From positions 59,981 through 123,980 of the forward strand of contig CAYMIA010000001.1 of NCBI GenBank assembly GCA_964390595.1: a stretch of DNA of 64,000 nucleotides. The letters are read 5' to 3'. Under the pieces are notes generated by a model. The model did no database searches and was not told the DNA's origin. It saw nothing but the letters and a program-made list of their open reading frames with translations. A program made the position numbers and the translations under genes. The stretch comes from an uncultured Gammaproteobacteria bacterium. GTDB lineage: Bacteria; Patescibacteriota; Microgenomatia; Daviesbacterales; UBA10151. Shown here piece after piece: positions 5,699 to 36,170 of this stretch. The first letter of the stretch is position 1. Each line of letters begins with the position of its first letter.

Positions 5699-7132
5699 TC
5701 AGATTCTGCAAAATTGCATTGATGGTTCGAGCCATTTTCTTCCATTGGATTCAATTAATTGATCAGCCTCTTTTGGGCCCCAAGTTCCAGGCTTGTAAAT
5801 GAGAGGAATCTGGGAGCTTTTTGCATATTGATCAATGAAGGACCACTGGGCTTCAACCTCTTCAGCATCATTAAAAAAGGTTTGATCCCCTCGGATAACA
5901 TCGGAAATTAATCTTTCATATGGATCAGGGAGCCCGTGAAAGTTGCGGTCAACTGGATAGCAATATTGCATATATTCAGGGTTGAGTTTAATTTTGTGTC
6001 CAGGATGTTTGACCGCTACTTTTAAAACAATTCCTTCGTTCGGAGCTATTCTGTAAATTAAAATATTTGGTTCATCCACACTGCCTAGATTTTTAAACAA
6101 TCTGTTTTCTGGATTTTTGAATATAACGGAGATCTCTGTTACAGTTTGGGCTAATTTTTTACCAGCCCTGACATAGATCGGAACTCCTTTGAAACGGTTG
6201 TTATCAATTTCAGTTTTAAGCGCGTAGAAAGTATCTGTTTTTGAAGTAGGGGAGACGTTTTTTTCTTGACTATAGCCTTCGTATTGGCCCAGGATTAATT
6301 TTTTAGGATGGGGAATAAGTTCCTGTAAGATTTTTAATCTTTGTTTGGTGACTGCCTCATTGCTAAACTCGATTGGAGCATCCATTGCCGCAAAGGCGAT
6401 CATTTGAAGTTGATGATTTTGGCCAACATCTTTAAGGGAGCCCACAGTGTCAAAGTATCCACCCCGGTCGCCAATGCCAAAATCTTCAGAAGCAGTGACT
6501 TGAATATGATCGATAAATTCAGAGTTAATTAAGGGCTCGAAAACGCCATTCCCAAATCTAAAAGTTAAAATATTTTGAAGGGTTTCTTTACCAAGGTAGT
6601 GATCAAGCCGGTAGATCTGATCTTCAGAGAAATACTTCTTCAGTAGCTGATTTAACTTTTTGGCGGAACTTAAATCATTACCAATTGGCTTTTCAATCAT
6701 TAAACGGACAAAACCGGATCTTTGATGATTCATCTTGGCGCGTTGCAAGTTATCAAAGGCGTGATGATATAAATCCGGATAGGTTGCTAAATAATAGATG
6801 ACATTTTGTGACTTCAACTTAACTAAAAAGCCTTTTAATTTGACATAAAAATTGGGGTCATCGAGATGTCCGGGTAAGTAATGCATTTTCTTAACCAGCT
6901 TTTTTAAAATGGTTTCTTTAATAGGATGTTGGTGATGGCGGTTTTCTTTATTTAAAACTTGATGGATATACTTGGTAAATTCAGCTGGGGTTTGGGTGGA
7001 TCTAGCAATTCCGATAATGGAGATATTTGATGGCAGTAAATCCTTTTCAGCCATATCATAAAGAGCGGGAAGAAGTTTGATTTGAGCCAGATTTGAGGTA
7101 ATTCCAAAAATAACCAGGGTAAGCTTTTCCAT
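5699..7132 (-). CDS. zwf: glucose-6-phosphate 1-dehydrogenase
   Basis: 477 aa with the canonical G6PD active-site motif RLDHYLGKE, and EKPIGNDL upstream of it. Confidence 0.9.
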   Translation of the reverse strand: MEKLTLVIFGITSNLAQIKLLPALYDMAEKDLLPSNISIIGIARSTQTPAEFTKYIHQVLNKENRHHQHPIKETILKKLVKKMHYLPGHLDDPNFYVKLKGFLVKLKSQNVIYYLATYPDLYHHAFDNLQRAKMNHQRSGFVRLMIEKPIGNDLSSAKKLNQLLKKYFSEDQIYRLDHYLGKETLQNILTFRFGNGVFEPLINSEFIDHIQVTASEDFGIGDRGGYFDTVGSLKDVGQNHQLQMIAFAAMDAPIEFSNEAVTKQRLKILQELIPHPKKLILGQYEGYSQEKNVSPTSKTDTFYALKTEIDNNRFKGVPIYVRAGKKLAQTVTEISVIFKNPENRLFKNLGSVDEPNILIYRIAPNEGIVLKVAVKHPGHKIKLNPEYMQYCYPVDRNFHGLPDPYERLISDVIRGDQTFFNDAEEVEAQWSFIDQYAKSSQIPLIYKPGTWGPKEADQLIESNGRKWLEPSMQFCRI

Positions 7133-7252: not shown

Positions 7253-7858
7253 ATGAAGATTGGTTCGACTAGAACTTTGGAAGAAAATAGAGAAGTTTTA
7301 AAGGATCCTGACTCGGTTGGTCCGGACCCAGTTTACTGGGTTTTTTCAGGTATCGAAACTGTACCTTGGGATAATATGACAGTTTTTGCTCCAGGGCGCT
7401 ATACTTCGACTTCGCTCAGTACCAATGGCGGCGGTGAGTATCCAAAGACTTTTGGGCATTATCATCCGGAGGATAGCAAAGATGAAGTTTATACTGTGAT
7501 TCACGGCGATGGCATATTCGTGATGCAAAAAAAGTTTTTTGATGAAAATGGTCAGTGGGTGGAGAATAAAGTTAGTGAGGTGGTGTTAATTTTCGCCAAA
7601 CATGGGGACGAGGTGGTTATCAAGCCAGAATGGGGTCATTCATGGAGCAATGTTGGTGATGATCCACTAATTACATCGGATAATTGGATTTGGGGTCATA
7701 CACCGGCTGATTATGAAGTAATTGGCAAAATGCATGGAATGGCCTATTACCTAATTGAAGAAGCGGGTGCTCCTAAAGCTGTGCCAAACCCAAACTACGC
7801 AGACTTACCTGAGCCACAATGGTTGAATGTCGAGCAGTTTAGTCAGAAATATGGTTAA
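7253..7858 (+). CDS. pgiA: cupin-type glucose-6-phosphate isomerase (archaeal-type cPGI)
   Basis: 201 aa. TSLSTNGGGEYPKTFGHYHPEDSKDEVYTV matches the cPGI signature T-x3-P-x3-G-x-E-x3-T-x-G-H-x-H-x6-11-E-x-Y. PEWGHSWSN matches the second motif P-x3-H-x3-N. It is divergent from zwf. Confidence 0.7.
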   Translation: MKIGSTRTLEENREVLKDPDSVGPDPVYWVFSGIETVPWDNMTVFAPGRYTSTSLSTNGGGEYPKTFGHYHPEDSKDEVYTVIHGDGIFVMQKKFFDENGQWVENKVSEVVLIFAKHGDEVVIKPEWGHSWSNVGDDPLITSDNWIWGHTPADYEVIGKMHGMAYYLIEEAGAPKAVPNPNYADLPEPQWLNVEQFSQKYG

Positions 7859-8507
7859 CTTTTTTGGTTTTAAGTAAGGGAATAGTTAGGCCAGCTAGTA
7901 TTCCAAAAGAACTACCCATTAAAAACCCACCTATCACGTCAGAGGTCCAATGTTCTCCCAAGTAAATCCGGGAGATCATCATTAAGATTAAACTGCCCAA
8001 AAGAATTGGTTGGATAATAGATTGGATTTTAGCTGGTGTTTTGAGATAGAAATAAACTATTAAAAAACAGATTAAAAAGGCTGTTCTGGTGACGTGCCCA
8101 GATGGATATGAATAGTTAGTATGAACAAACTCACTAGGAAAATGAAATTGAATGACGCCCCGGTAAAATAAAAAAGGGGGAGCTGGATGAAAGATAAATA
8201 ATTTACCATAAATCTCAACTACTAAAGCAATTGGGAGTAAGAATAGGCTGGCTGCAGCGACCCAAAATTTTTTAACTCCTAGAAAGATTAATAAGATCAG
8301 CCAAGCCACTCCAGTGATCTCTGCTGTTCCTAGTAGCGAAAGGATTGAAAAAGGTAGATCGAATTTTCGGGAGATATGATCTTGAAGGCGGACAGTGGTG
8401 TTAAAATCAAAAAAAACAAACCGGCCAGAGGCGACAAAGTAAGTAAAGACTAGAAAAAGAAAAAATAAGAAGAGGGCGATTAAAAAAAATGGTATTTTTT
8501 TGCCCAT
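7839..8507 (-). CDS. PAP2-family membrane phosphatase (phosphatidic acid phosphatase type 2 / undecaprenyl-PP phosphatase-like)
   Basis: 222 aa and polytopic. It carries the PAP2 motifs PSGH (YSYPSGHVTRTAF) and SRIYLGEHWTSD (SR-x5-H-x3-D). Confidence 0.7.
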   Translation of the reverse strand: MGKKIPFFLIALFLFFLFLVFTYFVASGRFVFFDFNTTVRLQDHISRKFDLPFSILSLLGTAEITGVAWLILLIFLGVKKFWVAAASLFLLPIALVVEIYGKLFIFHPAPPFLFYRGVIQFHFPSEFVHTNYSYPSGHVTRTAFLICFLIVYFYLKTPAKIQSIIQPILLGSLILMMISRIYLGEHWTSDVIGGFLMGSSFGILAGLTIPLLKTKKVNHISD

Positions 8508-8529: not shown

Positions 8530-9294
8530 TTGTCTGCTTTGGCCTATTTGACGTATCATACAGTTATGAAAATAATCTGGATATTGCTCTTGGTTTTTGT
8601 TTTGGTGATCGCAGTTAATCTAAACCGGCTTTATGCTCAAATTTATGACCGGGTTTATATCCCTAGTCCTAACGACAAGGTGACTTACTTTTTGGGTCAA
8701 AAAAATGCTAAAAATGGTGTGGTTAAGTATGTCTCAATGGGAGATAGTTTAACTGCTGGTGTGGGAGTGGATTCGATCGAAAAAAGTTATCCCTACTTGG
8801 TCGCCAAAAAGATTTCTAAAGAGTTTCCGGATGTCGAACTGATTGATTTAGGGGTTCCAGGTGCGGGTGCCGATGATGTCTTTAGAGTTGAGCTACCGAT
8901 GGCCGTAAAGGAAAATCCTGATTACGTTACTCTTTTAGTTGGTATCAATGACATACACGATCATGTCTCAAAAGATAAGTTTAAAAAACAATATGAACAA
9001 ATTTTGGATACTCTCTTAAGTAAGACTACCGCAAAAATAGTTATTTTAAACGTGCCTTATTTAGGTGCGCCAAATTTGATTGTTTTTCCATACAGCAATT
9101 TTTATGATGGAGAGACCAGGCAGTTTAATTTGATAATTAAGCAGTTGGCTGAAAAAAAGAACCTCCCTTTGGTTGACTTATTTACATCTTCCAAGATATT
9201 TCAATCAGACCCAGCCAGATACTACAGCCCCGATCTTTTCCATCCAAATGAAGCTGGTTATAGAATTTGGGGAGACTTGATTAATGCCCGTTAA
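8530..9294 (+). CDS. SGNH/GDSL hydrolase (esterase/O-acetyl-transfer partner)
   Basis: 254 aa. Block I GDSLTAG, block III GINDI, block V DLFHPNEAGY (D-x-x-H). N-terminal TM anchor. Confidence 0.7.
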   Translation: MSALAYLTYHTVMKIIWILLLVFVLVIAVNLNRLYAQIYDRVYIPSPNDKVTYFLGQKNAKNGVVKYVSMGDSLTAGVGVDSIEKSYPYLVAKKISKEFPDVELIDLGVPGAGADDVFRVELPMAVKENPDYVTLLVGINDIHDHVSKDKFKKQYEQILDTLLSKTTAKIVILNVPYLGAPNLIVFPYSNFYDGETRQFNLIIKQLAEKKNLPLVDLFTSSKIFQSDPARYYSPDLFHPNEAGYRIWGDLINAR

Positions 9295-10333
9295 TGTAGT
9301 TGACGCTAAGTTACAGACAATATTTTTTTCTGGTCTGATAACTCTAATCCTCCTTTTTACACTCAGAAAAAAAATTAGTTTATCAGCTTTGGATATCGAT
9401 ACAACAACTGAGCTAAAAGGTTTGGCAATTTTGGCGATTGTTTTATCGCATATTGGATATTTTTTATCGACCGATCATGATTTTTTATTTCCACTGTCGA
9501 TTTTGGCAGGCTTAGGGGTCAATGTTTTTTTGTTTTTATCGGGATTTGGGCTGATGGTTTCATCAACAGAGAAGCCCCTGTCCATTCTTAATTTCTATTT
9601 AAAGCGGCTGCGGAAAATTTTTATTCCAATGTGGATTGTAATTACGGTTTTGTTTTTGGCCGATTTTTTTGTTTTAGGCCGGACCTACAAACCTCTGGAG
9701 ATTTTAAGTTCATATTTGGGGTTTTTTCCAAAGGCTGATTTGTACATCAATTTGAATGCACCTTTGTGGTATTTTTCCTTCATTCTATTTTATTATTTGC
9801 TTTTTCCAATAATCTTTCTCAAAAAATACCCGGTAGTCTCGGTAATTTTGATGATGGTTCTGAGCTTTATTTTTTCGAGGATGGTATTGCCAGTTGACTT
9901 TGGAGTAAACCAACTTTATAAGGTGCATTTTCTGGCTTTTCCATTAGGAATGTTACTGGCGATTTTCTCAAAAAGAATCACTAAAATCCCCAGTTTAATT
10001 TCATTTGTGCTCATACCTGTTTTTATTTTTGTTTTTGCCTATACAGCGATTAATTCTGGAGTAGGCCAGGGACTTGTGATTGAACAGGCAACTAGTTTAG
10101 TAACTTTATTTAGCTTACTCGGAGTGTTTATTTTAAAGAGGTGGCAGTTTAAATTTTTGATGCTTCTGGGAGTTTACTCATATGAGATCTATTTAATTCA
10201 CTGGCCACTTCTTTATAGGTATGATTGGTTGTATAAATTTTTGCCACCGGCGCTCGCGACTTTATTGTATATCTTTCTATTCCTAGCTTTAGGAGTCGTT
10301 TTGCAGAGATTAACTAGTAAACTTAAAGGTTAG
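9284..10333 (+). CDS. acyltransferase family 3 (membrane O-acyl/acetyltransferase)
   Basis: 349 aa with about 10 TM segments. The N-terminal LKGLAILAIVLSHIGYF is typical of AT3 proteins. It overlaps the SGNH gene by 11 nt. Confidence 0.7.
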   Translation: MPVNVVDAKLQTIFFSGLITLILLFTLRKKISLSALDIDTTTELKGLAILAIVLSHIGYFLSTDHDFLFPLSILAGLGVNVFLFLSGFGLMVSSTEKPLSILNFYLKRLRKIFIPMWIVITVLFLADFFVLGRTYKPLEILSSYLGFFPKADLYINLNAPLWYFSFILFYYLLFPIIFLKKYPVVSVILMMVLSFIFSRMVLPVDFGVNQLYKVHFLAFPLGMLLAIFSKRITKIPSLISFVLIPVFIFVFAYTAINSGVGQGLVIEQATSLVTLFSLLGVFILKRWQFKFLMLLGVYSYEIYLIHWPLLYRYDWLYKFLPPALATLLYIFLFLALGVVLQRLTSKLKG

Positions 10334-10398: not shown

Positions 10399-10983
10399 AT
10401 GGGATTAATTAATGATCTGTCAATTATTAATATGATTTCCTGGCTCATTTTAGGACTCTCGGTTGGGTATATGACTCACTTAGTTGATGGTAGAGAGATT
10501 CGAGGAGGACTTATTGGATCGCTTTTAATGGGAGTTTTGGGTGCGGTCCTGGGAGGTTTTTTGGCTAATTTAATCTTTGGAGTTGGGATTGCTGGTTTTG
10601 ATGTGCCATCGCTGCTTTTTTCTATCGCTGGGGCGGTAATTTTGACGGTTTTTCAAAGGGTGTTTTCAAGTGAGATCCAATCGAATCCGGAAATTAAAGA
10701 AACGGGCGATTATGATCTGCCAGTTGATCAGGATAGTATCACCGAAGTTTATGAACAAGGTGACTTGGCTTACTTCTCTCAGGTGACACCGCTGAAAACG
10801 GATTACAGGTTAAATAACTACTTAAAGAGGGTCAGTTTTCCAGCGAGTAAAAGCGATTTAATTTCCTTTGCTGATCATGAGGATGCGAGTTACCAAACCT
10901 TAGAGACACTTGAGCAATTACCTGATCATATCTTTACGAGCGAAGAGGAATTAAGAAATTCGATCGATCAAATTAGATCATAA
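10399..10983 (+). CDS. GlsB/YeaQ/YmgE-family stress membrane protein fused to C-terminal DUF2795-like domain
   Basis: 194 aa. The N-terminal glycine-zipper TM region (GGLIGSLLMGVLGAVLGGFLANLIFG) is typical of transglycosylase-associated/YeaQ proteins. The C-terminus (YLKRVSFPASKSDLISFADHEDASYQTLETLEQLPD) resembles DUF2795. Confidence 0.5.
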   Translation: MGLINDLSIINMISWLILGLSVGYMTHLVDGREIRGGLIGSLLMGVLGAVLGGFLANLIFGVGIAGFDVPSLLFSIAGAVILTVFQRVFSSEIQSNPEIKETGDYDLPVDQDSITEVYEQGDLAYFSQVTPLKTDYRLNNYLKRVSFPASKSDLISFADHEDASYQTLETLEQLPDHIFTSEEELRNSIDQIRS

Positions 10984-11053: not shown

Positions 11054-11701
11054 GTGAGAGAGATGGCAAGAATGGTATTGGGTGTTTTTTCTCTTCGAGA
11101 TGAAGCTGAGATGGCAATCCGTGAGTTAGAGCGGGCGGGTTTTGATCCTAAGGATGTTTCTATTATCATGAAAAACCGTGAGGAAGCCCGGGAGATCTCG
11201 GATAATACCGAGGCTAATATCGCTGGAGGAGCGGTGACTGGAGCGACTGCTGGTGGCGCAATAGGCGCGCTTGCAGGTTTACTAATTGGGGTGGGGGCGA
11301 TAGCAGTGCCTGGTGTGGGAGCACTCTTAATTGGTGGCCCGATTGCGGCAGCGCTTGGCTTAACAGGGGCGGCGGCAGCGACTGCATCTGGTGCATTGAC
11401 TGGAGCTTTAGCTGGTGGTTTGATTGGCGGGTTACTTAGTTTGGGTGTGCCAGAAACTGATGCGAGAATCTATGAAGACCGTATTAAGGAGGGTGGTATC
11501 TTGCTTTTGGTGCCAGTTACCGACGGCAATACTGATGAGGCCAGAGAGATTCTGGAGACTAATGGGGCTGATCAGATTAAGATTGTGGGAGACTTAAAGA
11601 GCAGAAGAGGTGAATATGAAAGTCAGGGTTCACCGGCTTTTTATAGTGATGTTCCTAGAAAAAGAAGTGAGATTGATGAGTTTAATGAAGATGATATTTG
11701 A
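11054..11701 (+). CDS. general stress protein (YflT/GsiB-like N-domain) with glycine-zipper membrane segment
   Basis: 215 aa. The N-terminal VVGVFSLRDEAEMAIRELERAGFD...VSII resembles the YflT-type heat/stress-induced domain. An extensive G/A-rich glycine zipper follows. Confidence 0.45.
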   Translation: MREMARMVLGVFSLRDEAEMAIRELERAGFDPKDVSIIMKNREEAREISDNTEANIAGGAVTGATAGGAIGALAGLLIGVGAIAVPGVGALLIGGPIAAALGLTGAAAATASGALTGALAGGLIGGLLSLGVPETDARIYEDRIKEGGILLLVPVTDGNTDEAREILETNGADQIKIVGDLKSRRGEYESQGSPAFYSDVPRKRSEIDEFNEDDI

Positions 11702-11989: not shown

Positions 11990-12568
11990 ATGACCGGACG
12001 AACTCATGATTTGGCAGCTTTTACAGCGCTGAATTTGGTAGTAGCTACAAATTCTCCAAGTCAGCTAACATTAGCAACGGCTTTGGTGGGATTAACTGCT
12101 AATTTAATAGGGGGGTTGGCTCCGGATATAGATCAACCAACTGCGGAGTTGTGGAATAGATTGCCAGCTGGCTCTATTTTTGGGCGGATTTTATCACCGA
12201 TTCTGGGGGGTCACCGTTTCATCTCTCATTCGATCCTAGGAATGATTATATTTGGCTTGGGGAGCAAGTATTTACTTAACCTACTGGCCGGTGTTTTATT
12301 GGTGGATATGCAGGTCGTCTGGATCTGTTTTATGATTGGATTTGTTTCTCATTTACTCATGGATACTTTAACCAGAGAGGGTGTACCATGGCTTTTTCCT
12401 TTGCCAGTTAGATTGGGGGTTCCGCCACTTCGAGCGCTTCGGATGAAAACAGGTGGTTTGTTGGAGAAGATGATGGTTTTTCCTGGATTAATACTGGCTA
12501 ATGCCTATATTTATTACCGATATTATCCACAATTTATGGAGTTTTTAAGACATACGATCAGGTACTGA
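11990..12568 (+). CDS. membrane-bound metal-dependent hydrolase (YdjM/DUF457 family)
   Basis: 192 aa. The N-terminal TGRTHD, then HRFISHS and VSHLLMD motifs, sit in a TM context characteristic of DUF457. Confidence 0.55.
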   Translation: MTGRTHDLAAFTALNLVVATNSPSQLTLATALVGLTANLIGGLAPDIDQPTAELWNRLPAGSIFGRILSPILGGHRFISHSILGMIIFGLGSKYLLNLLAGVLLVDMQVVWICFMIGFVSHLLMDTLTREGVPWLFPLPVRLGVPPLRALRMKTGGLLEKMMVFPGLILANAYIYYRYYPQFMEFLRHTIRY

Positions 12569-12654
12569 TTTATTACTATTTTCTTACCCAAGTTGGCAGA
12601 CAAATTTGTTAATTGATGATTAATCTAGAAATTTAGACTGGAGGTGAGATTGTT

Positions 12655-12789
12655 TTGGTAAAAGATTTATCTAGGAGGAATAAATTTAAGAAGAAGGAGA
12701 AGATAGCGATTGGTCAAGAACGCAATCCTTATGGAGAGACATTTTATAGTCAAGTTAGAGGATGGACAAAAAAGGCTAAAGGCCCTTAG
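12655..12789 (+). CDS. possible small basic protein (44 aa) with TTG start
   Basis: This ORF is not in the supplied track because it is under 60 aa. It follows a strong SD, GGAGGTGA, 7 nt upstream of TTG. Translation: (M)VKDLSRRNKFKKKEKIAIGQERNPYGETFYSQVRGWTKKAKGP. It sits in a gap of about 200 nt between genes. Confidence 0.25.
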   Translation: MVKDLSRRNKFKKKEKIAIGQERNPYGETFYSQVRGWTKKAKGP

Positions 12790-13915
12790 GGTTCCACATT
12801 GTGAGGTCTTCACCACCTAGCTTCCAGAAAACAAAGCTATTAATACCTAAGCTTTTAGCTAGAGAAATTTTTTTAAAGATACTAGTTTGGTCTTGAAACC
12901 AAACAGAGTGAGTATTATTTTGGGGATCAATATAAGAAAAATTTAGCTCCCCTGAATCTTTATCTCTGGTTGGATTAATATGATAGGTTTGAGCTTTGCC
13001 TATTAACTCAGTATAGGTTGAGCCAACCCCTTTTTTGCTGTCCCAGTCATAGCCATAATTTGGCAAACCAATAATAATTTTTTGGGGTGGAATGTTTTTT
13101 TGAGCATAGTTGATTGATGAGCGGAGATCCTCGAGTGGAGTAATTGGGCCTGGAGTTGAATTTTCGCTATGGAAATCATATGCCATCACTCTAATAAAAT
13201 CGGCCGACCTGCTCAAGTTTAAATAATCCTGACCCTTAGTGCCAATCCATTGATTATTTTCACCAGTTTGAGCGTGAACGGTGATGGAGAGGATTAGATT
13301 ATTGTGATGTAGCTGACTCGCTAGTTGGGAGACAAAACCGTTAAAATTTTCCTTATCGTCTGGGAGTATTTCCTCCCAATCTAGGTCCCAGCCATGAAAG
13401 CTAGCAGAAGTGGCGATGTTTGTTAGATCAGAAATTAGTTTTTGGCTGAGCTGCTTGTTATTTAAGAGTTTGTGGACTCGGGCTCCATCAAAGTCATTGC
13501 CGATAGAGGGAGTGACCAGGACGTTAGAGGACGCGGCGATGTTTAAAACTTCCTTTTTGTATTTAACAGCGAGCTCTTTAAGGGTGCCATCTGGTTCTAA
13601 TTTGTACCAAGCTGGGAGTATTTCGTTTAGGTTTTGGGAGGCGTTTTTAAATGAATTCAGAACACTGGCTTCATCCCAGGAGGGCAACCAGGCAGAGATA
13701 GTCGATTTCATAACTGGACTCATTGAAGTTTGAGTTACTGGAGAGGAGCTAATTATTTGAGGGGGTTGATTTAGCCATAATCTGGTAAAAAAAATTCCAC
13801 CTGAAATAACAATGATGGCAATTAGAATTGCCAGGTTTTTATTCATGTTATTTAACCCTTTTTTTACTGACGATTCGGCGGATTGATCGGCGGATTTTAC
13901 TGGTGCCGAGTACAC
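12776..13915 (-). CDS. glycoside hydrolase family 18 (chitinase-like) protein, membrane-anchored
   Basis: 379 aa. The GH18 catalytic motif D-x-x-D-x-D-x-E is present as HGWDLDWEE, and MAYDFH is also GH18-typical. N-terminal TM anchor. Confidence 0.7.
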   Translation of the reverse strand: MYSAPVKSADQSAESSVKKGLNNMNKNLAILIAIIVISGGIFFTRLWLNQPPQIISSSPVTQTSMSPVMKSTISAWLPSWDEASVLNSFKNASQNLNEILPAWYKLEPDGTLKELAVKYKKEVLNIAASSNVLVTPSIGNDFDGARVHKLLNNKQLSQKLISDLTNIATSASFHGWDLDWEEILPDDKENFNGFVSQLASQLHHNNLILSITVHAQTGENNQWIGTKGQDYLNLSRSADFIRVMAYDFHSENSTPGPITPLEDLRSSINYAQKNIPPQKIIIGLPNYGYDWDSKKGVGSTYTELIGKAQTYHINPTRDKDSGELNFSYIDPQNNTHSVWFQDQTSIFKKISLAKSLGINSFVFWKLGGEDLTMWNPKGL

Positions 13916-13938
13916 CTAAATGGAAAATAATCGAAAAA

Positions 13939-15039
13939 CTACTTACTGAATGGAAAGGCGTAGCCATAAAACCTCCTTTTGACTTGGTCTGTTTGTTCAC
14001 TATACCTTTTAGCCTTACCCCAGCTCATTGATAGATCAAAACTGAAAATAACCTTAATAAAACTTTTTAGAAAAACTAAACTGCTTAAGACTCTAAGTAA
14101 ATAAAAGAAGGGTAAGTAGCGAAAAATTAGCCAGTTGTGATGACGCTTACTAGTGAGAATTAGAGTGGGAGCGATAAATAAAATTAAGTCAATTAGTAGA
14201 GGAAATATTAATATGTGGGCCCGGTTGGTAATGACAAATGGGAGGAAAATTATCAAAGCAACTGAAAGAAGCCCGTTATACAGACCCTCGAGTGCCAGTA
14301 AGCCGACCTCTAAATCAAGCATTTGATTGCCCCAGGGGATGTTGTGTTTCCGGACGCATTGCCAAAAACCGGTATACCACCTGTCGATCTGTTTAAGAAA
14401 GTCAGTGATAGTTTTGGGATCTTGAGTAACTACGACTGAGCGATCGGTGTAGACGATTTGGCCTAAATTTTGGCGGTGAATTAAGAAAGTAAAGTCCATA
14501 TCCTCAGTCAGTGTTCCCGTTGGAATCTCTATTTTGTCAAAGATATCAGCCCGATAGATGGTTGAGCAACCTGGGCAAACTATAATGGCATTTTCAATAT
14601 TCTGGGCTGATTTATGAATGGTTTGGGCGACTTCATACTCCCAGAGCCGGTATGTAGTGATGGCGTTGTAGGTTTTGCCGATTACTTTTCCAACTACGCA
14701 AGCAATCTTTTTACCTTTAAATAAGGGCAGGCTGTTGTCTAGAAAAGATTTAGTAATTTTAGTATCGGCATCCATAGGCATTAAGTATTCATAATTTTTG
14801 GCTAACTTAAAATGCTTAATGGCTAGGTTCATAGCTGTTGCTTTGCCTTTGTTTGGGTTGAGGGTTAAGACATTAGAGACTAGTTTTTTAGCTTCCATTT
14901 CGGTGCCATCGATTGAACCATCATTGACAACGTAAATATCTTTTTTGTCAGCCACTTCGAGTAGTGACTTGATGGTATCGGCTATGACAGCTTCTTCATT
15001 GTGAGCTGGAACTAAAAAGGCGATCAGTCGTTTTTTCAT
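13939..15039 (-). CDS. processive family-2 glycosyltransferase (PNAG/chitin-synthase-like, IcaA/PgaC-like)
   Basis: 366 aa. GT2 motifs are present: VVNDGSIDGT, the DAD box PMDADT, TED (GTLTEDMD) and the Q-x-x-RW motif (KQIDRWYTG) that is diagnostic of processive beta-glycan synthases. C-terminal TM segments. Confidence 0.75.
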   Translation of the reverse strand: MKKRLIAFLVPAHNEEAVIADTIKSLLEVADKKDIYVVNDGSIDGTEMEAKKLVSNVLTLNPNKGKATAMNLAIKHFKLAKNYEYLMPMDADTKITKSFLDNSLPLFKGKKIACVVGKVIGKTYNAITTYRLWEYEVAQTIHKSAQNIENAIIVCPGCSTIYRADIFDKIEIPTGTLTEDMDFTFLIHRQNLGQIVYTDRSVVVTQDPKTITDFLKQIDRWYTGFWQCVRKHNIPWGNQMLDLEVGLLALEGLYNGLLSVALIIFLPFVITNRAHILIFPLLIDLILFIAPTLILTSKRHHNWLIFRYLPFFYLLRVLSSLVFLKSFIKVIFSFDLSMSWGKAKRYSEQTDQVKRRFYGYAFPFSK

Positions 15040-15905
15040 TTGCTGGCTGTTTGATTTAAGACCACTTGAAGAGCTTGAGTTGGTAGAACAACAGGTACAT
15101 TAGACTCTTTGATAACGTTTAGCATGTCGTTTAATTTGGCTGGAGTTGTGGCATAGTCAGTTGTGCCGTCATCAACTTGATGGAACATAATAATGAGCCA
15201 CTCGTTATTGGTTTTAGCGTGCTCAACCCAAGCTTTGATATATTCAGGAGTGGTAAATGAGTGAACTGCCTGAACATTTAAAGTGTATGGATCTTGAACT
15301 GGAAGTGGATTGTAGCCAACTCCAGAGCCGCGGAGAGAGACATAATATTTTTTGGCGATTTCATCAATTAAAGGAGTACCTGCTCCACAAGGGGTGACAA
15401 AGTTTTCAGCGGTGATGTTGTGGGCTAGCAGATCTTGTTTGGCTCCAGCTAATTCATCCTCAACTTGCTGGGCTGATAAATGATCTGGATTGCAGTTGTG
15501 AGTTCTGGTGTGAGAAGAGATCTCCCAGCCACTGCTTTGCATCTTTTCTACTTGAGCCCAACTCATATAGGAGGGTTGGCCCAGAAGTTTGGTTGGAACA
15601 GCCAGCGAGCCTTTGAGGTTTTTGTCTTCCATCATCGGAAAAGCAGTTGAATATTGAGAGAGCCAGGCATCATCAAACCAGAGGGTGATGAGCCCACCAC
15701 CACTCCATTTGATTTTTTCGTAGGCAGTTTTAGTTGGTTGCTGAACTTGGACCTGAGTTGGCTGAGTTATCTTAGGATCGAGAACGTCCCAGGTTGGATG
15801 GTGAACTGTGCCAACTAAGTAGCCAATAGCTAGCCATACACCAATGATTGGTACGATCAGCCAAGACAACATATGCATTTTTTCTGGGTTGAGTTTTTTA
15901 GTCAT
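15036..15905 (-). CDS. polysaccharide deacetylase (NodB homology domain; IcaB/PgaB-like)
   Basis: 289 aa with the NodB motifs TLWFDDAW (a TFDDG variant) and SHTRTH (H-S/T-x-x-H). N-terminal TM anchor. It overlaps the GT2 gene by 4 nt. Confidence 0.65.
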   Translation of the reverse strand: MTKKLNPEKMHMLSWLIVPIIGVWLAIGYLVGTVHHPTWDVLDPKITQPTQVQVQQPTKTAYEKIKWSGGGLITLWFDDAWLSQYSTAFPMMEDKNLKGSLAVPTKLLGQPSYMSWAQVEKMQSSGWEISSHTRTHNCNPDHLSAQQVEDELAGAKQDLLAHNITAENFVTPCGAGTPLIDEIAKKYYVSLRGSGVGYNPLPVQDPYTLNVQAVHSFTTPEYIKAWVEHAKTNNEWLIIMFHQVDDGTTDYATTPAKLNDMLNVIKESNVPVVLPTQALQVVLNQTASK

Positions 15906-17356
15906 TAAAACCGCCTTTTGTATATATAGAAATCTTTACTCTGAAAAGTCAAGGCATAATTTTCAGATAAGTTTTCAGCGACCAACTTGTGTATACCCTC
16001 GTGAGAGTCATCTCTGGATTCTTGATCTCCTTCTAGCTCGACATAGTTAAAGTAACCATCATGAAGGGCTTTGGTGTAAGCGCTCGCATCTTCTTTTTTG
16101 CTATAAGAAAACCAGTCAAATGTAGTGACATTGATTGGATGGTCATTCTCGTAGATATCCAAAACAGCGGCTGAGCCAACTTCGGCTAAAAGTTTATCAC
16201 CTGGTTTAATATGGCTTTGGAGGTAAGATGTAATCGGTGAGCTATCGGTCCATTGGTGATTAAAGCGTTGGCCATCTTGGTAGGAAAGAAACCAATAAAG
16301 CGCTAGTACTGTTGTAATATAGCCGACGAGAAGCGTTTTGAGGTATCGGCCTTTGAGGGAGGTGATTATATTACCTATTCCTAGCCCAGCGACAATTGAT
16401 CCGAAAGCGATACTCAAAAAGATATGTTTATCAAAAGTGCTTAGCCGGTGGATACCGATATGAAACAAGAGGGCTAATAATCCACCAAATGTTAAAATGC
16501 TCCATAGTTTATATTGTTTATGTAAAAACATACCGATTGTGCCAAGAGCATAAAAGCCCAACATGTAATAGGTGTTGGTCCAAAACATCTCTAATATCTG
16601 AAGTGGGCTGGCATATTGATTGGATTGGGTTTGATAGTAGGTAACAAGAGCAGTAAAGTTGGTTAAAAGGAAAAAAGTCATGGCGGCGATTAAGGGATAG
16701 AGAAAATAGTTTTTAAAGAACTTGAACTGGGTTGGGGTTTTTCTTAACTTAAAAAAGAAGGTTAGTACAATAAATGGTAGAAAAATCCCGCTAATAATTT
16801 TAAACATGATTGCAGCAAACAATGAGAGGCTGGAAAGTAAATAAAGTTTACCGGTGTTCCGGTCTGTTTTTTCAGCCAGCAAAAGCAAACCAATGCTTAG
16901 GAATAGAAAATAAAAGCTAGGCATATCATAAGTGGCTAAACGGCTAACATAATAGGCTGTAGCTGAGCCACCTACGACCGCAGCAGCGATGCTGGCTGTT
17001 AAGTAATTTTGAGAATCTCTTTTTTTGGTGAGAAATAAGGTGATCATAAAAATGGTTTCAATGGTCAAGATGCCAAAGAAAACGTTCAGCAGTCTCGATC
17101 CAACTATACCGCCGATGGTATAGGCCAGGCTAGTAATAGTTGGATAAGCCATTGGGTGACCAGCAACCCAGGCTGAGGGGTTATAAGTGACCCAGTCGCC
17201 TTGGAAGATTCCTAGCTTTCCTAGAACCACATAAATTGCTTCATCATTAAATGGAGAGTTGTAATTTAAGTTGATTACCCGGATTAGCAATGCAATTGCT
17301 AGAATTAGCAAAAGTGGCAAATAGGTGATTGGTAAAGGTAGTTTTATTCGGCCCAT
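15905..17356 (-). CDS. GT-C fold glycosyltransferase (ArnT/PMT-like, GT39/GT83-like)
   Basis: 483 aa with at least 11 TM segments. The first-loop FNDEAIYV (DE motif) is characteristic of ArnT/PMT-type GT-C enzymes. Confidence 0.6.
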   Translation of the reverse strand: MGRIKLPLPITYLPLLLILAIALLIRVINLNYNSPFNDEAIYVVLGKLGIFQGDWVTYNPSAWVAGHPMAYPTITSLAYTIGGIVGSRLLNVFFGILTIETIFMITLFLTKKRDSQNYLTASIAAAVVGGSATAYYVSRLATYDMPSFYFLFLSIGLLLLAEKTDRNTGKLYLLSSLSLFAAIMFKIISGIFLPFIVLTFFFKLRKTPTQFKFFKNYFLYPLIAAMTFFLLTNFTALVTYYQTQSNQYASPLQILEMFWTNTYYMLGFYALGTIGMFLHKQYKLWSILTFGGLLALLFHIGIHRLSTFDKHIFLSIAFGSIVAGLGIGNIITSLKGRYLKTLLVGYITTVLALYWFLSYQDGQRFNHQWTDSSPITSYLQSHIKPGDKLLAEVGSAAVLDIYENDHPINVTTFDWFSYSKKEDASAYTKALHDGYFNYVELEGDQESRDDSHEGIHKLVAENLSENYALTFQSKDFYIYKRRF

Positions 17357-17447
17357 AACAATTAATTACAATCGTATTGCTGCATAATACTATATCTGAT
17401 AGTATTTGTAAACTATTAAACTAAACTTACTTTGGTATACTAATTTA

Positions 17448-17951
17448 ATGGTAGCTTTTGGACATACGGCAGTGGGTGTTTTGATTGGAGTAACGACTGC
17501 CCATTTTGTAGCTGATTCTGATCCAGTTTTGGGAATGTCTCTGGCCTTTGGGGTGGGACTGGTATCACATTATTTGGCAGATTTTATTCCCCATGGTCAT
17601 TTTTTTACTGACACGACCAAGTACAAAAAATACGCCCTGCCAATCATTATTTTTGATTTGGGACTTGGCGGGGTAATATTTTTGGGGTTATCTTTTTTAA
17701 AGTTTGGGGTGAGTTGGCCCATGGTTTATATTATTTTGGCTGTTGTTGCATCAGAGTTGCCTGATGCATTAGACGCTTTTGTTTGGATGAAAATGATTAA
17801 GCCTAAGGGACTGATTGGCTTGGAGTATCAGCTGCATAGAGCGATGCATTGGCATGCTAGGCCAGATCCTGGTCTGCCGCTTGGCCTATATGATATTTGG
17901 CAGGTGGCAGTAATAATTGGTGCTTTTTTAGTGTTTAAAGTTATTTCTTAG
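17448..17951 (+). CDS. membrane protein (possible DUF457-like hydrolase)
   Basis: 167 aa and polytopic. An N-terminal His plus the SHYLADFIPHGH motif are loosely reminiscent of YdjM-type proteins. Confidence 0.35.
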   Translation: MVAFGHTAVGVLIGVTTAHFVADSDPVLGMSLAFGVGLVSHYLADFIPHGHFFTDTTKYKKYALPIIIFDLGLGGVIFLGLSFLKFGVSWPMVYIILAVVASELPDALDAFVWMKMIKPKGLIGLEYQLHRAMHWHARPDPGLPLGLYDIWQVAVIIGAFLVFKVIS

Positions 17952-17984
17952 GTAATTCTCAGCTAGCCTTGGTATAATTCGAGG

Positions 17985-18662
17985 ATGAGAATTTTAATAG
18001 TTGAAGATGAGCACAAGATCGCCCAGTCGATTAAAAAGGGGCTAGAACAGGAAGCTTACGCAGTTGATATAGCTTATGATGGGACTGAGGGACTCGATAT
18101 GGGTTTATCGGGAGATTTTGATTTGATAATTTTGGACCGGATGCTGCCAGGTTTGGATGGAATTCAGATCTGTCTCAAGTTGCGTGAAAGTGATATTCAT
18201 ATACCAATTCTAATGTTAACAGCTAGGGGGCAGGTTGAAGATCGGGTGGTGGGTTTGGATTCAGGGGCTGATGATTATTTAGTCAAACCTTTTGCATTTG
18301 AAGAGTTGCTAGCAAGAATTAGAGCATTAAAGAGGAGGCCAGTTGATAGTTTAGGGGTTAAGTTGCAAATGGCTGACTTGTCGCTTGATCCCGGCAAATT
18401 TGAGGTCGAAAGAGGTAAAAAATCAGTTAGGCTTTCTAATAAAGAGTTTGCTTTGCTTGAATATTTAATGAGACATCCCAATCAGATTCTCACCAAAGAG
18501 CAGATCATTAATCATGTTTGGGATTATGAGGCAGATGTGTTGTTTAATACAGTCGAGGTTTATATCGGTTATTTGAGAAATAAAATTGACCGGGCTTTTC
18601 CTAAAAGCCCAAACTTGATTAAGACCGTGAGAGGTTTTGGATACAAATTAACTGAAGGGTAA
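17985..18662 (+). CDS. OmpR-family two-component response regulator
   Basis: 225 aa with a receiver domain (MRILIVEDE...DLIILDRMLPGLDG) and a C-terminal winged-helix domain (Trans_reg_C). Confidence 0.9.
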   Translation: MRILIVEDEHKIAQSIKKGLEQEAYAVDIAYDGTEGLDMGLSGDFDLIILDRMLPGLDGIQICLKLRESDIHIPILMLTARGQVEDRVVGLDSGADDYLVKPFAFEELLARIRALKRRPVDSLGVKLQMADLSLDPGKFEVERGKKSVRLSNKEFALLEYLMRHPNQILTKEQIINHVWDYEADVLFNTVEVYIGYLRNKIDRAFPKSPNLIKTVRGFGYKLTEG

Positions 18663-18669
18663 TTTTGGA

Positions 18670-19689
18670 ATGTTTCAATCAGCTAGGTTTAAACTGACAT
18701 TTTGGTATATCTTAATTATCGCCTGCATTAGCGTTTTTTTTAGCGCCGCCTTTTACAAAACTTCAACCAAAGAGTTTGATAGAATAAAGCAGGTTGCTCA
18801 GTTCCGGATTGATCACGAAGAAGACCAATTTCTCCCTCCAGAGATTTTGGCGTTGAGGTTGGAGCAGAATCGGAACACCTTGAGTACAGTTGCGGAAGCT
18901 GAACGGCGGATATTGCTCTTTTTGGTGGTGATTAATCTGATCTTGCTTTTGGGCAGTGCTGGGGCGAGTTATTTTTTAGCTGGCCGGACACTTAAGCCAA
19001 TTCAAGAGATGGTAAATGAGCAGAATAGATTCATCAGCGATTCCTCTCATGAACTCCGAACTCCGCTGACTGCGCTTCGAAGTATGATCGAGGTTAATTT
19101 AAGAGCCAAGAAGTTATCAGTTAAAGAAGCCAGAGAGCTGCTTGTGAGTAATTTAGAAGAGGTGGTTAGTTTGCAGACTTTGGCAGAAAGTTTATTGCAG
19201 CTAACTCAGTTGGGAAGTAAGAATACTTATCAATTTAAAAAAATTAACTTAAGAAACTTGGGAGAAGAGGCGATTAAGAAAGTTCGACCTTTATCTAAAG
19301 AAAAAGATATTAAAATTGAGAACAAGCTGGAAGACCTGTCAGTTGAGGGAGAATATTTGAGCTTGCTTGAATTGTTTGTGATCTTTCTGGAAAATGCAAT
19401 TAAGTATAGCCACCCAGGCAGTGATATTATAGTTGATTTGGCTATTTTGGATCACACTGTCAAAATTAACTTCAAAGATCAAGGGATTGGCATAGAACCA
19501 TCGGAGTTGGCTCATATCTTTGACCGTTTTTATCGGGTTGATTCAGCCAGAAGTGGTAGTAAAGTGGGTGGTTTTGGGTTGGGGTTGTCAATTGCTAAAA
19601 AGATTGCTGAGCTTCACCAAGGGCAAATTGAGGTGGAAAGTAAGGTGGGTCAAGGGAGTAAATTTAGTGTCTTATTGCCTCTAAAATAG
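18670..19689 (+). CDS. sensor histidine kinase
   Basis: 339 aa with two TM segments. H-box SHELRTPLTALRS and HATPase G-boxes (GGFGLGLSIAKK). It starts 8 nt after the response regulator. Confidence 0.85.
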   Translation: MFQSARFKLTFWYILIIACISVFFSAAFYKTSTKEFDRIKQVAQFRIDHEEDQFLPPEILALRLEQNRNTLSTVAEAERRILLFLVVINLILLLGSAGASYFLAGRTLKPIQEMVNEQNRFISDSSHELRTPLTALRSMIEVNLRAKKLSVKEARELLVSNLEEVVSLQTLAESLLQLTQLGSKNTYQFKKINLRNLGEEAIKKVRPLSKEKDIKIENKLEDLSVEGEYLSLLELFVIFLENAIKYSHPGSDIIVDLAILDHTVKINFKDQGIGIEPSELAHIFDRFYRVDSARSGSKVGGFGLGLSIAKKIAELHQGQIEVESKVGQGSKFSVLLPLK

Positions 19690-19703
19690 ATCTTTACAGA
19701 AAC

Positions 19704-20696
19704 ATGTTTAGTGAACAAGGCCGGGTCATTTATCATCGCAGAAAAAGAAAAAGCAGATTTACCAAACTGATGCTGGTTCTGTTTGGATTTATTTTTGTTT
19801 TAGCGGTCTACTGGCTGTTTTTAAAAAGGCAGCCGGAGAGCTTGCCGCTTAGTTCGTCAGTTGGTTCATCTGAGCAAAATTTAGGTGGGGTTTCAGTTCT
19901 GTCTCTTTCGACTAACCGGCCGGAGAATCTTGACTCTGCGCTGTCGCAAGTAGTTCAAAAATCCCTTGAGGGTACCAGGGGAACTTACGCGGTAGCGATA
20001 AAGAATTTAAAAAATGGTGAGACGTATTTATACAACGAACATCGGGTTTTTGAGGCAGGCAGTTTATACAAACTTTGGGTAATGAATACGGTGATGGAAA
20101 AAATTAATCAGGGAGTATTGAAGGAGGATGATGTGCTGGAGGAGGATGTTCAGATATTAAATTCTGAATTCAGTATTGACCCAGAACTAGCTGAACAGAC
20201 AGAGGGGACAGTTTCCTTTACAGTGAATGATGCCTTAAAACAGATGATCACAATATCTCATAACTATGCCGCATTGATTTTAACAGCCAAAATTAGATTA
20301 TCAACTGTAGCCAAGTTCTTAGCGGATAATAATTTTAAAGAATCTCAGGTTGGTACCAATGGTGAAGCTCCAGTGACAACGGCGCTAGATATAATGCGCT
20401 ATTTAGAGAAATTGTATTTAGGGCAGCTCTCTGATAAGGAATCGACGGATAAGATGTTAAATTTGTTAAAGATGCAGCAGTTAAATGATAAGATTCCTAA
20501 ATATCTGCCGGTTGATACCATGGTCGCGCATAAAACTGGGGAGATTGGGCAATTTAGTCATGATGTTGGAATTGTTTACTCAAGTAAAGGGGACTATATT
20601 ATAGTTATTCTGTCAGAAAGCGACTACCCGCCAGGAGCCGAGGAGCGGATTGCTCAAGTCTCACAAGCAGTTTACCAATATTTTAATTCCAAATAA
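19704..20696 (+). CDS. class A beta-lactamase-like / penicillin-binding serine hydrolase
   Basis: 330 aa with an N-terminal TM anchor. It has the three active-site motifs S-x-x-K (SLYK), S-x-N (SHN) and KTG (HKTGEIG). Confidence 0.65.
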   Translation: MFSEQGRVIYHRRKRKSRFTKLMLVLFGFIFVLAVYWLFLKRQPESLPLSSSVGSSEQNLGGVSVLSLSTNRPENLDSALSQVVQKSLEGTRGTYAVAIKNLKNGETYLYNEHRVFEAGSLYKLWVMNTVMEKINQGVLKEDDVLEEDVQILNSEFSIDPELAEQTEGTVSFTVNDALKQMITISHNYAALILTAKIRLSTVAKFLADNNFKESQVGTNGEAPVTTALDIMRYLEKLYLGQLSDKESTDKMLNLLKMQQLNDKIPKYLPVDTMVAHKTGEIGQFSHDVGIVYSSKGDYIIVILSESDYPPGAEERIAQVSQAVYQYFNSK

Positions 20697-32803: not shown

Positions 32804-33748
32804 ATGAAAGCATTAGTAGCTGGGGGAGCTGGGTTTTTGGGATCGCACCTATGTGATAAATTACTTGAGCGAGGATATGACGTAATTTGTGTTGATAATC
32901 TACTCACTGGCTCAGAAAAAAATATTGAACACCTCAAAGATAATCCTAAATTTCAATTTATCAACCATGATGTGATTGAAAATTTGCCTGAGATACTTTC
33001 TGCCAATTTAGTTTTCCACTTAGCCTCCCCAGCCTCTCCTAACCATCATAGCCCGAAGAGTTATCACGTACTTTGGGAAGAAACGATGCAAGTCAATACA
33101 ACTGGAACTTGGAATTTAGCCGAGTTTGCACTGAAAAATGGTGCTAAATTTTTATTTGCCTCTACCTCTGAAGCGTACGGTGATCCACTCGAACATCCGC
33201 AAAAAGAGACCTACCGTGGTAACGTCTCAACAACTGGACCCCGCTCAGTCTATGATGAAGCAAAGCGCTTTGGGGAAACAGTGACTGCTGCATTTACTCG
33301 CTCAAAAGGGTTACAAGGAAAGATTATCCGCATTTTTAATACGTATGGGCCAAGAATGGCACGAGATGACGGCAGGTTGGTAATCGAGTTTGTGCGAGCA
33401 GCTTTAAAAGGTGAACCGCTACCAATCTTTGGGGATGGAAAACAAACACGCTCATTCTGTTACGTCTCAGATTTGATCGATGGGATCATCGCTGTTATGG
33501 AGAGTGACAAAACAAATGGGGAAGTAGTCAATTTAGGAAACCCTGGTGAGTTCACAGTTTTAGAGTTCACCGAAGTTGTTAAAACAGTTACCAATTCAAA
33601 TTCACAGGTGGTTTTTAAAGAATCCTTACCTAAAGATGATCCATTAAAAAGAAAACCAGATATTACAAAAGCGAGAGAGCTACTTAATTGGGAACCAAAA
33701 ATTCATTTAGAAGAAGGCTTGAAAAAATTAATTGTTTCACTTCAATGA
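32804..33748 (+). CDS. UDP-glucuronate decarboxylase (UDP-xylose synthase)-like NAD-dependent epimerase/dehydratase
   Basis: 314 aa with GxxGxxG (VAGGAGFLGSH). SEAYGDPLEHPQKETY matches the UXS/ArnA-decarboxylase signature around the catalytic Y-x3-K. Confidence 0.75.
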   Translation: MKALVAGGAGFLGSHLCDKLLERGYDVICVDNLLTGSEKNIEHLKDNPKFQFINHDVIENLPEILSANLVFHLASPASPNHHSPKSYHVLWEETMQVNTTGTWNLAEFALKNGAKFLFASTSEAYGDPLEHPQKETYRGNVSTTGPRSVYDEAKRFGETVTAAFTRSKGLQGKIIRIFNTYGPRMARDDGRLVIEFVRAALKGEPLPIFGDGKQTRSFCYVSDLIDGIIAVMESDKTNGEVVNLGNPGEFTVLEFTEVVKTVTNSNSQVVFKESLPKDDPLKRKPDITKARELLNWEPKIHLEEGLKKLIVSLQ

Positions 33749-36165: not shown

Positions 36166-36170
36166 AATAG

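Follow-up and report, generated by a model that had tools for sequence, protein, structure and literature searches.

Four membrane-anchored products of one locus

The stretch analysed here, 64,000 nucleotides of contig CAYMIA010000001.1 (the window), carries four co-directional minus-strand genes that would encode a small envelope-glycan pathway: a glycosyltransferase of the GT-C fold, a CE4 de-N-acetylase, a GT2 synthase and a GH18 hydrolase. An original prediction from the letters alone had proposed these four identities for open reading frames (ORFs) at 15905-17356, 15036-15905, 13939-15039 and 12776-13915, and our ORF calls, domain searches and fold searches agree with it on all four. The features are as follows.

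15905..17356, minus strand: GT-C-fold membrane glycosyltransferase, ArnT/PMT/ALG/OST-like (483 aa)
15036..15905, minus strand: CE4 (NodB-fold) de-N-acetylase (289 aa; PF01522)
13939..15039, minus strand: predicted minimal membrane-embedded GT2 of the processive-synthase class (366 aa; matches PF00535, PF13641 and PF13632)
12776..13846, minus strand: GH18 glycoside hydrolase (356 aa from ATG 13846; ORF open to GTG 13915, 379 aa; PF00704)
17384..17412, minus strand: sigma-70-like promoter candidate TTTACA-17-TATTAT (10/12), 28 nt upstream of the GT-C start codon

Junctions of 0-4 nt had been claimed throughout, which holds for GT-C/CE4 (1-nt overlap) and CE4/GT2 (4-nt overlap) but not for GT2 and GH18, which do not overlap and are separated by 23 nt if the GTG is the start and by 92 nt if ATG 13846 is. 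The ATG is preceded by an AAGGG-like ribosome-binding site; with the 356-aa product on record, it is also the start chosen in the public gene call. The promoter candidate sits in the 91-nt divergent intergenic region and is the top-scoring promoter-like site within 12400-18000; counts of promoter-like and terminator sites in a scan of the region were not clearly above shuffled expectation, so that it is position that speaks for this candidate. The single operon proposed originally is nevertheless plausible on sequence grounds because the genes are co-directional, two junctions are start/stop overlaps and the highest-scoring promoter-like site is found a short distance upstream of the GT-C gene, even if the promoter evidence is weak. 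Hydropathy and structure models agree with the earlier statement that every enzyme is membrane-anchored, and all four proteins are singletons at 90% identity clustering.

The GT2 carries D40, D90-A-D92, T178-E-D180 and Q217-I-D-R-W221, so the DAD, TED and QxxRW motifs named beforehand are present, and they are conserved in orthologs (D40, D90-A-D92, E179-D180 and Q217-x-x-R220-W221 being either invariant or conserved at 92% or more); DAD, ED, QxxRW and a C-terminal W...R persist even in divergent GT2 clades. Its AF2 model (pLDDT 90) shows a cytosolic GT-A domain from residue 4, an interface helix carrying QxxRW, a transmembrane (TM) hairpin formed by 240-272 and 275-300, another hydrophobic helix at 303-331 and, last, a basic tail in which W340...R345 is conserved. 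Neither the model nor hydropathy places TM helices at the N-terminus, the hydrophobic helices being confined to 240-331. Foldseek returned the Chlorella virus HAS as top match (TM-score 0.72, E ~1e-14), followed by BcsA and chitin synthases, and when the GT2 profile was compared with the PDB it aligned over its full length only to BcsA (residues 7-306) and HAS (21-320), whereas GtrB (5ekp) and DPMS (5mlz) align only to the N-terminal half (residues ~4-115) and do not figure among the 50 best fold matches. Polyprenyl-phosphate GT2s such as ArnC, GtrB and DPMS share a DADLQ motif and a layout of two juxtamembrane and two TM helices (PMC12690121). The metal motif of the present family is DADT, not DADLQ.

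Among curated families the best NCBIfam match is PgaC_IcaA (TIGR03937; 1.7e-23), at 83 bits against an equivalog cut-off of 422 bits; across the GT2 clade this family matches 42 of 43 members (best 1e-34), all below the cut-off, and XrtG-associated GT2 and NodC are the next best curated families, far below theirs. The Chitin_synth_2 match of the window protein reaches 20 bits against a Pfam threshold of 27, and the same domain is matched in nearly all homologs. The original prediction had allowed that the enzyme might cluster with non-processive dolichol/undecaprenyl-phosphate transferases; by profile, Foldseek and curated families it groups with the processive synthases instead. As judged from sequence and model, the GT2 is a truncated ('minimal') member of the processive membrane synthase class, not an enzyme of the polyprenyl-phosphate type. 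In both fold and size it also resembles PcManGT (6yv7; TMt 0.67), a 'minimal cellulose-synthase-like' GT2 implicated in N-glycan assembly.

The CE4 protein (PF01522 at 3e-11) has an N-in single TM anchor (residues 16-34) followed by a predicted extracytoplasmic catalytic domain. The FDD and HxxxH motifs that had been reported correspond to F77-D78-D79 and H132-x3-H136, accompanied by R192 and H242, and D78, D79, H132, H136, R192 and H242 are invariant in 17 orthologs. A comparison of its profile with the PDB gave PplD (6dq3) as best match (1.5e-10), then BpsB/PgaB (5bu6) and IcaB (4wcj), with no ArnD among the matches; the protein is closer to these enzymes than to those of the PdaA and PgdA types. 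With 289 aa and a single domain, it lacks a GH153-like C-terminal domain. PplD of Streptococcus pyogenes consists of an N-terminal TM helix plus a catalytic domain that lies outside the cell, and de-N-acetylates N-acetylglucosamine (GlcNAc) in a wall polysaccharide (PMC8807736). The module enzyme shares this TM plus ectodomain layout with PplD, its closest solved relative; the similarity is modest, however, the substrate of PplD is a rhamnopolysaccharide, in which it targets the single GlcNAc-1-P linkage unit, and its gene does not lie together with those of a synthase-type GT2, GH18 or GT-C. In the alignment the order of motifs differs as well, the catalytic His motif being C-terminal in the module enzyme (H242) and its equivalent near the N-terminus in PplD. 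The window holds a second, more canonical CE4 at 45815-46723 (plus strand; PF01522, 9e-29), 32% identical to the module CE4 over ~105 aa and likely, from its sequence, a peptidoglycan deacetylase; the module CE4 is therefore not the only NodB enzyme of the cell.

The GH18 protein (PF00704 at 2e-33, with a weak GH85 match besides) likewise has an N-in single TM anchor and a predicted extracytoplasmic (beta/alpha)8 domain. The 'DxDxDxE' string attributed to it is absent; what is present is HGWDLDWE (DxDxE; D177-L-D179-W-E181 in GTG-start numbering), in which His stands in place of the first Asp of the canonical DxxDxDxE and the catalytic D-x-E is kept. In 24 orthologs the conservation of D179 and E181 is at least 92%, and D177 is present in the window protein but variable. 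The best PDB relatives are YdhD (3cz8; 6e-36) and YaaH/SleL (4s3k/4s3j; ~1e-31) and not classical chitinases, and the range of the best sequence matches in this group (6e-36 to 2e-30) goes along with a shared (beta/alpha)8 core and D-x-E. YdhD, YaaH and SleL are Bacillus spore peptidoglycan hydrolases, whereas the module protein has no LysM, is TM-anchored, comes from a non-sporulating lineage of the Candidate Phyla Radiation (CPR) and is strictly linked to a GT2 and a GT-C. It also keeps the 'D2' Asp (DLDWE), which alignments show to be missing from YdhD (TIDFE) and YaaH (HFDFE).

The GT-C protein has about 11-13 TM helices and a ~110-aa C-terminal extracytoplasmic alpha/beta domain. No sequence match to the window protein was found in Pfam, NCBIfam or the PDB (phmmer), nor by a profile of 46 sequences against the PDB; because these direct searches were empty, its identity was resolved only through Pfam matches of homologs (PF13231, PMT_2, in 29/46 and PF02366 in 5/46) and structure prediction. 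The protein has the conserved N-terminal module and the multi-TM core of the GT-C fold; Foldseek ranks ArnT first, oligosaccharyltransferase (OST)-like folds match too, and the fold scores do not separate the subclasses. Directly after TM1, in the first extracytoplasmic loop, lies an acidic motif (NSPFNDEAIY) whose D38-E39 is invariant in 46 sequences and, judged by position, would be equivalent to the catalytic residues of PMT or ArnT. The subfamily comprises about 110 clusters at 50% identity, and distant relatives occupy other genomic contexts; in L028 one adjoins a short GT2 ORF that was read as DPMS-like from its sequence only. The longer homologs P0062, P0015 and P0039 were considered as GT-C fusions and rejected, their extra length being loop insertions or N-terminal extensions.

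Conservation and variants of the module

Synteny was assessed from both ends of the locus. The GT-C-anchored set consisted of 41 species-representative loci, of which 27 closer relatives plus the window (28 loci) were used for counting; here a GH18 is found in 24, a GT2 in 24 and a CE4 in 20, and the shortfalls are mostly truncated contigs. With the GT2 as anchor (metagenome orthologs with 45% identity or more and a sufficient flank), co-occurrence is 23/23 for the GT-C, 22/23 for the CE4 and 19/22 for the GH18. By their source names the homologs come from Woesebacteria, Shapirobacteria, WWE3 and Gottesmanbacteria (Patescibacteria/CPR, Microgenomates-type), which puts the window in this group as well, and the arrangement is more than chance because it is conserved across dozens of species-level genomes and metagenome contigs. 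Among the ORFs of the 28 loci no flippase (GtrA, ArnE/F), ABC transporter, GtrB-type GT2 or primer enzyme is conserved, nor is a small TM protein of the PgaD/IcaD kind or a donor-making enzyme for the GT-C. At E<1e-3 a search for another GT2 in the window found none, and the annotated neighbours (~20 kb annotated in detail) include no WecA- or GtrA-like gene.

Exactly the six complete loci without a CE4 (Curtiss-, Levy- and Chisholmbacteria types) carry instead a PIG-L GlcNAc de-N-acetylase together with WbqC:

L017, L021, L023, L024, L025, L027 (e.g. L024 104-8678): divergent PIG-L version of the module, with PIG-L, WbqC, GT-C, GH18 and N-TM GT2

The GT2 of these loci is an N-TM variant of the same PF13632 family, and their GT-C and GH18 ORFs overlap. 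Nucleotide-sugar enzymes are encoded as well (UDP-sugar dehydrogenase, NAD epimerase/dehydratase and, in L024, a DegT aminotransferase), which suggests that these lineages make a modified (amino or uronic) sugar polymer.

A sister clade of minimal GT2s (32-40% identity) has a GT-C or GH18 in none of 11 loci, and often a CE4 directly downstream. By analogy such a pair would be an IcaA/IcaB-like two-gene unit, and since these GT2s are paired with a CE4 alone, the combination of GT2 and deacetylase is evidently autonomous. In three sister loci (L109 3048-6255, L111 5929-8947 and L090 5917-8925) the GT2 precedes a small secreted protein, a YkuD-like short ORF and the CE4; their GC contents differ (0.39-0.60), and their neighbours, QueD-like, ClpS-like and small-heat-shock-like by N-terminal sequence, would fit a proteobacterial or phage origin. 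A further variant is seen in L122 (3140-5997) and L123 (1920-4777), where the minimal GT2 is followed by an overlapping 618-aa TM-[DUF2334/CE4]-GH18 fusion with no GT-C nearby. The fusion relatives (P0233, P0235) have a GH18 45% identical to that of the window, and the source records label homologs 'spore germination protein YaaH'. A 465-aa protein beside the fusion in L122 is not a GT-C; it gives a weak ADH_N match. The CE4-GH18 fusions, the complementary distribution of CE4 and PIG-L and the sister variants together argue that the GT2, the de-N-acetylase and the GH18 act on one GlcNAc-containing glycan. The occurrence of GT2+CE4 and GT2+CE4-GH18 units without a GT-C argues in turn that the GT-C is a lineage-specific addition that is not required for this chemistry.

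A proposed synthase-type pathway and competing explanations

The explanation that suits our data best is an envelope-glycan module that is complete in itself and typical of CPR bacteria of the Microgenomates type. Within that frame we regard as moderately probable a synthase-type poly-GlcNAc pathway, in which polymerisation of GlcNAc is the task of the GT2, partial de-N-acetylation outside the cell that of the CE4, and cleavage or remodelling of the product that of the GH18. The GT2 would work at the cytoplasmic face of the membrane as an inverting synthase of the class that includes HAS, BcsA, chitin synthase, PgaC and NodC, converting UDP-GlcNAc into a beta-linked GlcNAc chain. Once the growing chain had reached the outer face, the TM-anchored CE4 would strip a fraction of the N-acetyl groups to give a cationic, chitosan-like polymer, and the TM-anchored GH18 would cut or remodel the chain at the remaining GlcNAc residues. 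At the same outer face the most likely role of the GT-C would be to provide the polymer or its wall acceptor with a sugar taken from a polyprenyl-phosphate carrier that enzymes encoded elsewhere in the genome supply. The sugar (GlcNAc) and its linkage are deduced from sequence relationships, and we likewise infer export by the minimal GT2, the donor and acceptor of the GT-C and its decoration of the polymer.

The proposal that these enzymes make, de-N-acetylate and trim a polymer agrees with their intact catalytic residues and strongly conserved co-occurrence, two of the points on which the original prediction could have failed by its own account. The nearest solved relatives of the CE4 (PplD, BpsB/PgaB, IcaB) act on GlcNAc in exported polymers, and the lack of a conserved flippase, ABC transporter or GtrB-type GT2 fits synthase-coupled export. 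GH18 catalysis is substrate-assisted and requires beta-1,4-linked GlcNAc at subsite -1; by analogy, a chitin/chitosan-like beta-1,4 polymer is for this reason more likely than the beta-1,6 polymer of poly-N-acetylglucosamine (PNAG) systems.

The module has features in common with both kinds of system. As in ica/pga loci, there is a membrane GT2 with D, D, D and QxxRW, whose best curated match is PgaC_IcaA, and an extracytoplasmic CE4 with an intact metal/catalytic site and BpsB/PgaB and IcaB as near relatives. The logic is synthase-dependent, with no Wzx/Wzy or ABC transporter, and the sister GT2+CE4 pairs would be minimal icaA/icaB-like units. The original prediction had gone further and equated the locus with icaADBC/pgaABCD logic, which does not fit: the GT2 falls far short of the PgaC/IcaA cut-off (83 versus 422 bits), lacks N-terminal TM helices and has no PgaD/IcaD-like partner; the hydrolase is a GH18 and not the GH153 of PgaB or a GH20 dispersin; and neither a PgaA porin nor IcaC belongs to the module. 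No known PNAG system includes a GH18, and GH18 enzymes are not known to cleave beta-1,6 linkages. A dedicated GT-C is, as had been noted, foreign to known PNAG systems. The comparison with chitin triads and NodC-NodB rests on a QxxRW-class GT2, a CE4 and a GH18 with intact D-x-E that would make, de-N-acetylate and cleave beta-1,4-GlcNAc, on the chitin synthases among the GT2 fold matches and on NodC as second or third best curated family across the clade. Here the differences are the sub-threshold Chitin_synth_2 match, a GT2 much smaller than chitin synthases, a GH18 of the YdhD/YaaH subgroup, the absence of a NodA-type acyltransferase and the joining of the enzymes with a GT-C in one putative bacterial operon.

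Several observations weigh against a synthase-type pathway. HAS and BcsA have at least six TM helices that form the channel for polymer translocation. The present GT2 consists, beyond its catalytic domain, of a TM hairpin and one further hydrophobic helix, without the flanking TM pairs that line that channel, and like NodC it may be unable to translocate a polymer alone, although oligomerisation or a partner could compensate. It misses every curated equivalog cut-off. The sequence affinities of the GT2 and CE4 lean towards PNAG (beta-1,6) enzymes, at odds with the GH18, whose own nearest solved relatives act on peptidoglycan. The universally co-inherited GT-C is given only a vague role and needs a lipid-linked donor from outside the module. 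Finally, the cytoplasmic-type PIG-L of the divergent clade would act on lipid-linked or soluble GlcNAc and not on an exported polymer, and this enzyme together with the channel-poor GT2 hints at lipid-linked intermediates.

Such intermediates are central to an explanation that we consider unlikely, in which the GT2 would build a short GlcNAc chain on polyprenyl-(pyro)phosphate, the anchor-proximal GlcNAc would be de-N-acetylated (by the CE4 outside or PIG-L inside) and the GT-C would be the ligase that transfers this chito-oligosaccharide en bloc to wall, lipid or protein, as an O-antigen ligase or oligosaccharyltransferase would, with the GH18 serving as chain-length editor or ENGase-like trimmer. 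Since the module conserves no other donor-making enzyme or flippase, the GT2 product would be the simplest substrate for the GT-C; the PcManGT-like size and fold of the GT2 (TMt 0.67), the OST-like fold matches of the GT-C, the weak GH85 (ENGase) matches of the GH18 and the overlapping GT-C and GH18 ORFs of the divergent clade are all compatible with such a scheme. Characterised deacetylase relatives, moreover, act on phosphate- or lipid-attached GlcNAc, namely PplD on a GlcNAc-1-P unit (PMC8807736) and PIG-L, by its Pfam name, on GlcNAc-PI. The scheme is opposed by the absence from the module of a priming phosphoglycosyl transferase (WecA/TagO type) and by the D-E motif after TM1 and PMT_2 matches, which point to the ArnT/PMT type with monophosphate-monosaccharide donors; the scheme cannot point to a WWDYG-type OST motif in the GT-C, and GT2+CE4 and GT2+CE4-GH18 units exist without a GT-C nearby. 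A lipid carrier would also be used in a relay like those of the Arn and Gtr systems, where the GT2 would make polyprenyl-phosphate-GlcNAc, the deacetylase would convert it to the glucosamine (GlcN) form and the GT-C would transfer cationic GlcN to an envelope acceptor (peptidoglycan, a teichoic-acid-like polymer or protein), the GH18 being an unrelated wall hydrolase. A GT2, a NodB-fold deacylase and an ArnT-like GT-C do mirror ArnC/ArnD/ArnT (PMC12690121) as well as Gram-positive wall glycosylation by GT-A, flippase and GT-C (PMC13390465), and a cationic amino sugar on the envelope would be a likely outcome in common with them. ArnT tops the Foldseek matches of the GT-C, which has the ArnT/PMT fold and the acidic motif after TM1; a deacetylase is always there even as its family varies between CE4 and PIG-L; and the UDP-sugar dehydrogenase, NAD epimerase/dehydratase and L024 DegT aminotransferase of the divergent clade recall Ugd/ArnA/ArnB. 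The relay is nonetheless disfavoured by sequence and model, and we hold it to be quite improbable: the GT2 is of the wrong type (DADT instead of DADLQ, with invariant ED and QxxRW, and aligned in full to BcsA/HAS as against half-length alignments to GtrB/DPMS outside the top 50 fold matches), module loci conserve no GtrA/ArnEF-type flippase, although one may be encoded elsewhere, the CE4 is extracytoplasmic and nearest to PplD/PgaB/IcaB, not ArnD, and neither the CE4-GH18 fusions nor the GH18, which is the best-conserved partner of the GT-C and has no counterpart in the Arn or Gtr systems, is explained.

The affinities of the GH18 to YdhD, YaaH and a cortical-lytic enzyme (6e-36 to 2e-30) raise, lastly, the question of peptidoglycan maintenance, with a PgdA-like CE4 and a SleL/YaaH-like N-acetylglucosaminidase acting on the cell's own or a host's peptidoglycan, and with the GT2 and GT-C as wall-glycosylation enzymes that share the location and not the substrates. 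Wall-related neighbours in the window (a split SGNH plus AT3 acyltransferase, a PAP2 phosphatase and a class-A beta-lactamase-like protein) are in keeping with this. We judge it very unlikely, as the window already has the separate canonical CE4 described above, the module CE4 is nearer to PplD/PgaB/IcaB than to PdaA-/PgdA-type enzymes, and unrelated substrates would hardly account for co-inheritance with a synthase-type GT2 seen from both anchors or for CE4-GH18 fusions next to GT2 genes.

The GT-C and GH18 might also form a new extracytoplasmic glycan-handling pair coupled to a minimal synthase, a reading that we put forward as doubtful. In one version the channel-less GT2 would dock on the GT-C with its 11-13 TM helices, which would provide the translocation path and then covalently transfer or decorate the emerging chitosan-like chain; in the other the GT-C would be a ligase joining a lipid-primed GlcN/GlcNAc chain to the wall or a surface protein, with the GH18 setting chain length.

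Genomic neighbourhood and implications

The window is an ordinary chromosomal context and not a mobile element. Its GC content is ~0.36-0.44 throughout, with no compositional island at the module, and GC skew is positive in every 2-kb bin save the first, so that cumulative skew climbs steadily across 1-64000; this pattern places the window within one replichore, with the module transcribed against the G-rich strand. Central-carbon genes lie at 5699-7132 (minus), 7253-7858 (plus) and 33742-38110 (minus), the set comprising glucose-6-phosphate dehydrogenase, a cupin-type glucose-6-phosphate isomerase, pyruvate phosphate dikinase and pyruvate kinase.

On the side of the GH18 gene, a YdjM-family membrane hydrolase (PF04307, 1e-23; 11990-12568, plus) adjoins the module; a member of this family is also found near the module in L026 (5299-5847) and beside the GT2 and CE4-GH18 fusion in L122 (7564-8130), which makes it recurrent and not universal. 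About 2.5 kb from the module, a TM-anchored SGNH/GDSL hydrolase (8530-9294, plus; PF13472, 6e-31) overlaps an AT3 acyltransferase (9284-10333, plus; PF01757, 2e-27). From their domains the two look like a split OatA/OafA-type glycan O-acetyltransferase, a pair that is not conserved beside the module in other loci. Between them and the module sit two small stress-type membrane proteins, a DUF2795 protein with Transgly_assoc (10399-10983, plus) and a YflT-like protein with a Gly/Ala-rich TM region (11054-11701, plus), the latter with a relative near the module in L006. A PAP2-family phosphatase (7839-8507, minus; PF01569, 3e-15) ~4 kb from the module could, by family, be an undecaprenyl-pyrophosphate phosphatase that recycles lipid carrier. 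Divergent from the module, 17985-20696 (plus) encodes an OmpR-type response regulator, a histidine kinase and a class-A beta-lactamase-like/Beta-lactamase2 protein (PF13354, 9e-41). In L011, L019 and L022, too, a response regulator, with or without the kinase, is encoded no more than a few kb from the module, and the two proteins could act on the module as an envelope-stress regulator.

CPR/Patescibacteria are ultra-small, mostly uncultured episymbionts whose envelope and host attachment are poorly understood. The literature searched on glycan synthesis in these bacteria does not describe the module, which is weak evidence as most subscription journals lay outside the coverage. The locus is a CPR-specific module, widely conserved and probably for poly-GlcNAc, that has its own GT-C; it works in the manner of the known ica/pga and chitin systems and belongs to neither. 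No precedent has been described for a synthase-type GT2 in obligate association with an ArnT/PMT-like GT-C, and the donor and acceptor of the latter would extend the known routes of polymer modification or anchoring; the conduit or ligase version, if true, would be an undescribed way to anchor a synthase-made polysaccharide. The 'minimal' ~350-aa PgaC-like synthases without N-terminal TM helices also offer a compact model for the least membrane architecture that a processive GT2 needs. As the four genes are kept across many Microgenomates lineages despite their reduced genomes, the module is likely central to the surface of these cells. Should its product turn out to be poly-GlcNAc with part of the N-acetyl groups removed, the polymer would be cationic and adhesive and could be detected by lectins or chitin-binding probes in enrichment cultures, and such a surface polymer could mediate host attachment in ultra-small episymbiotic bacteria.

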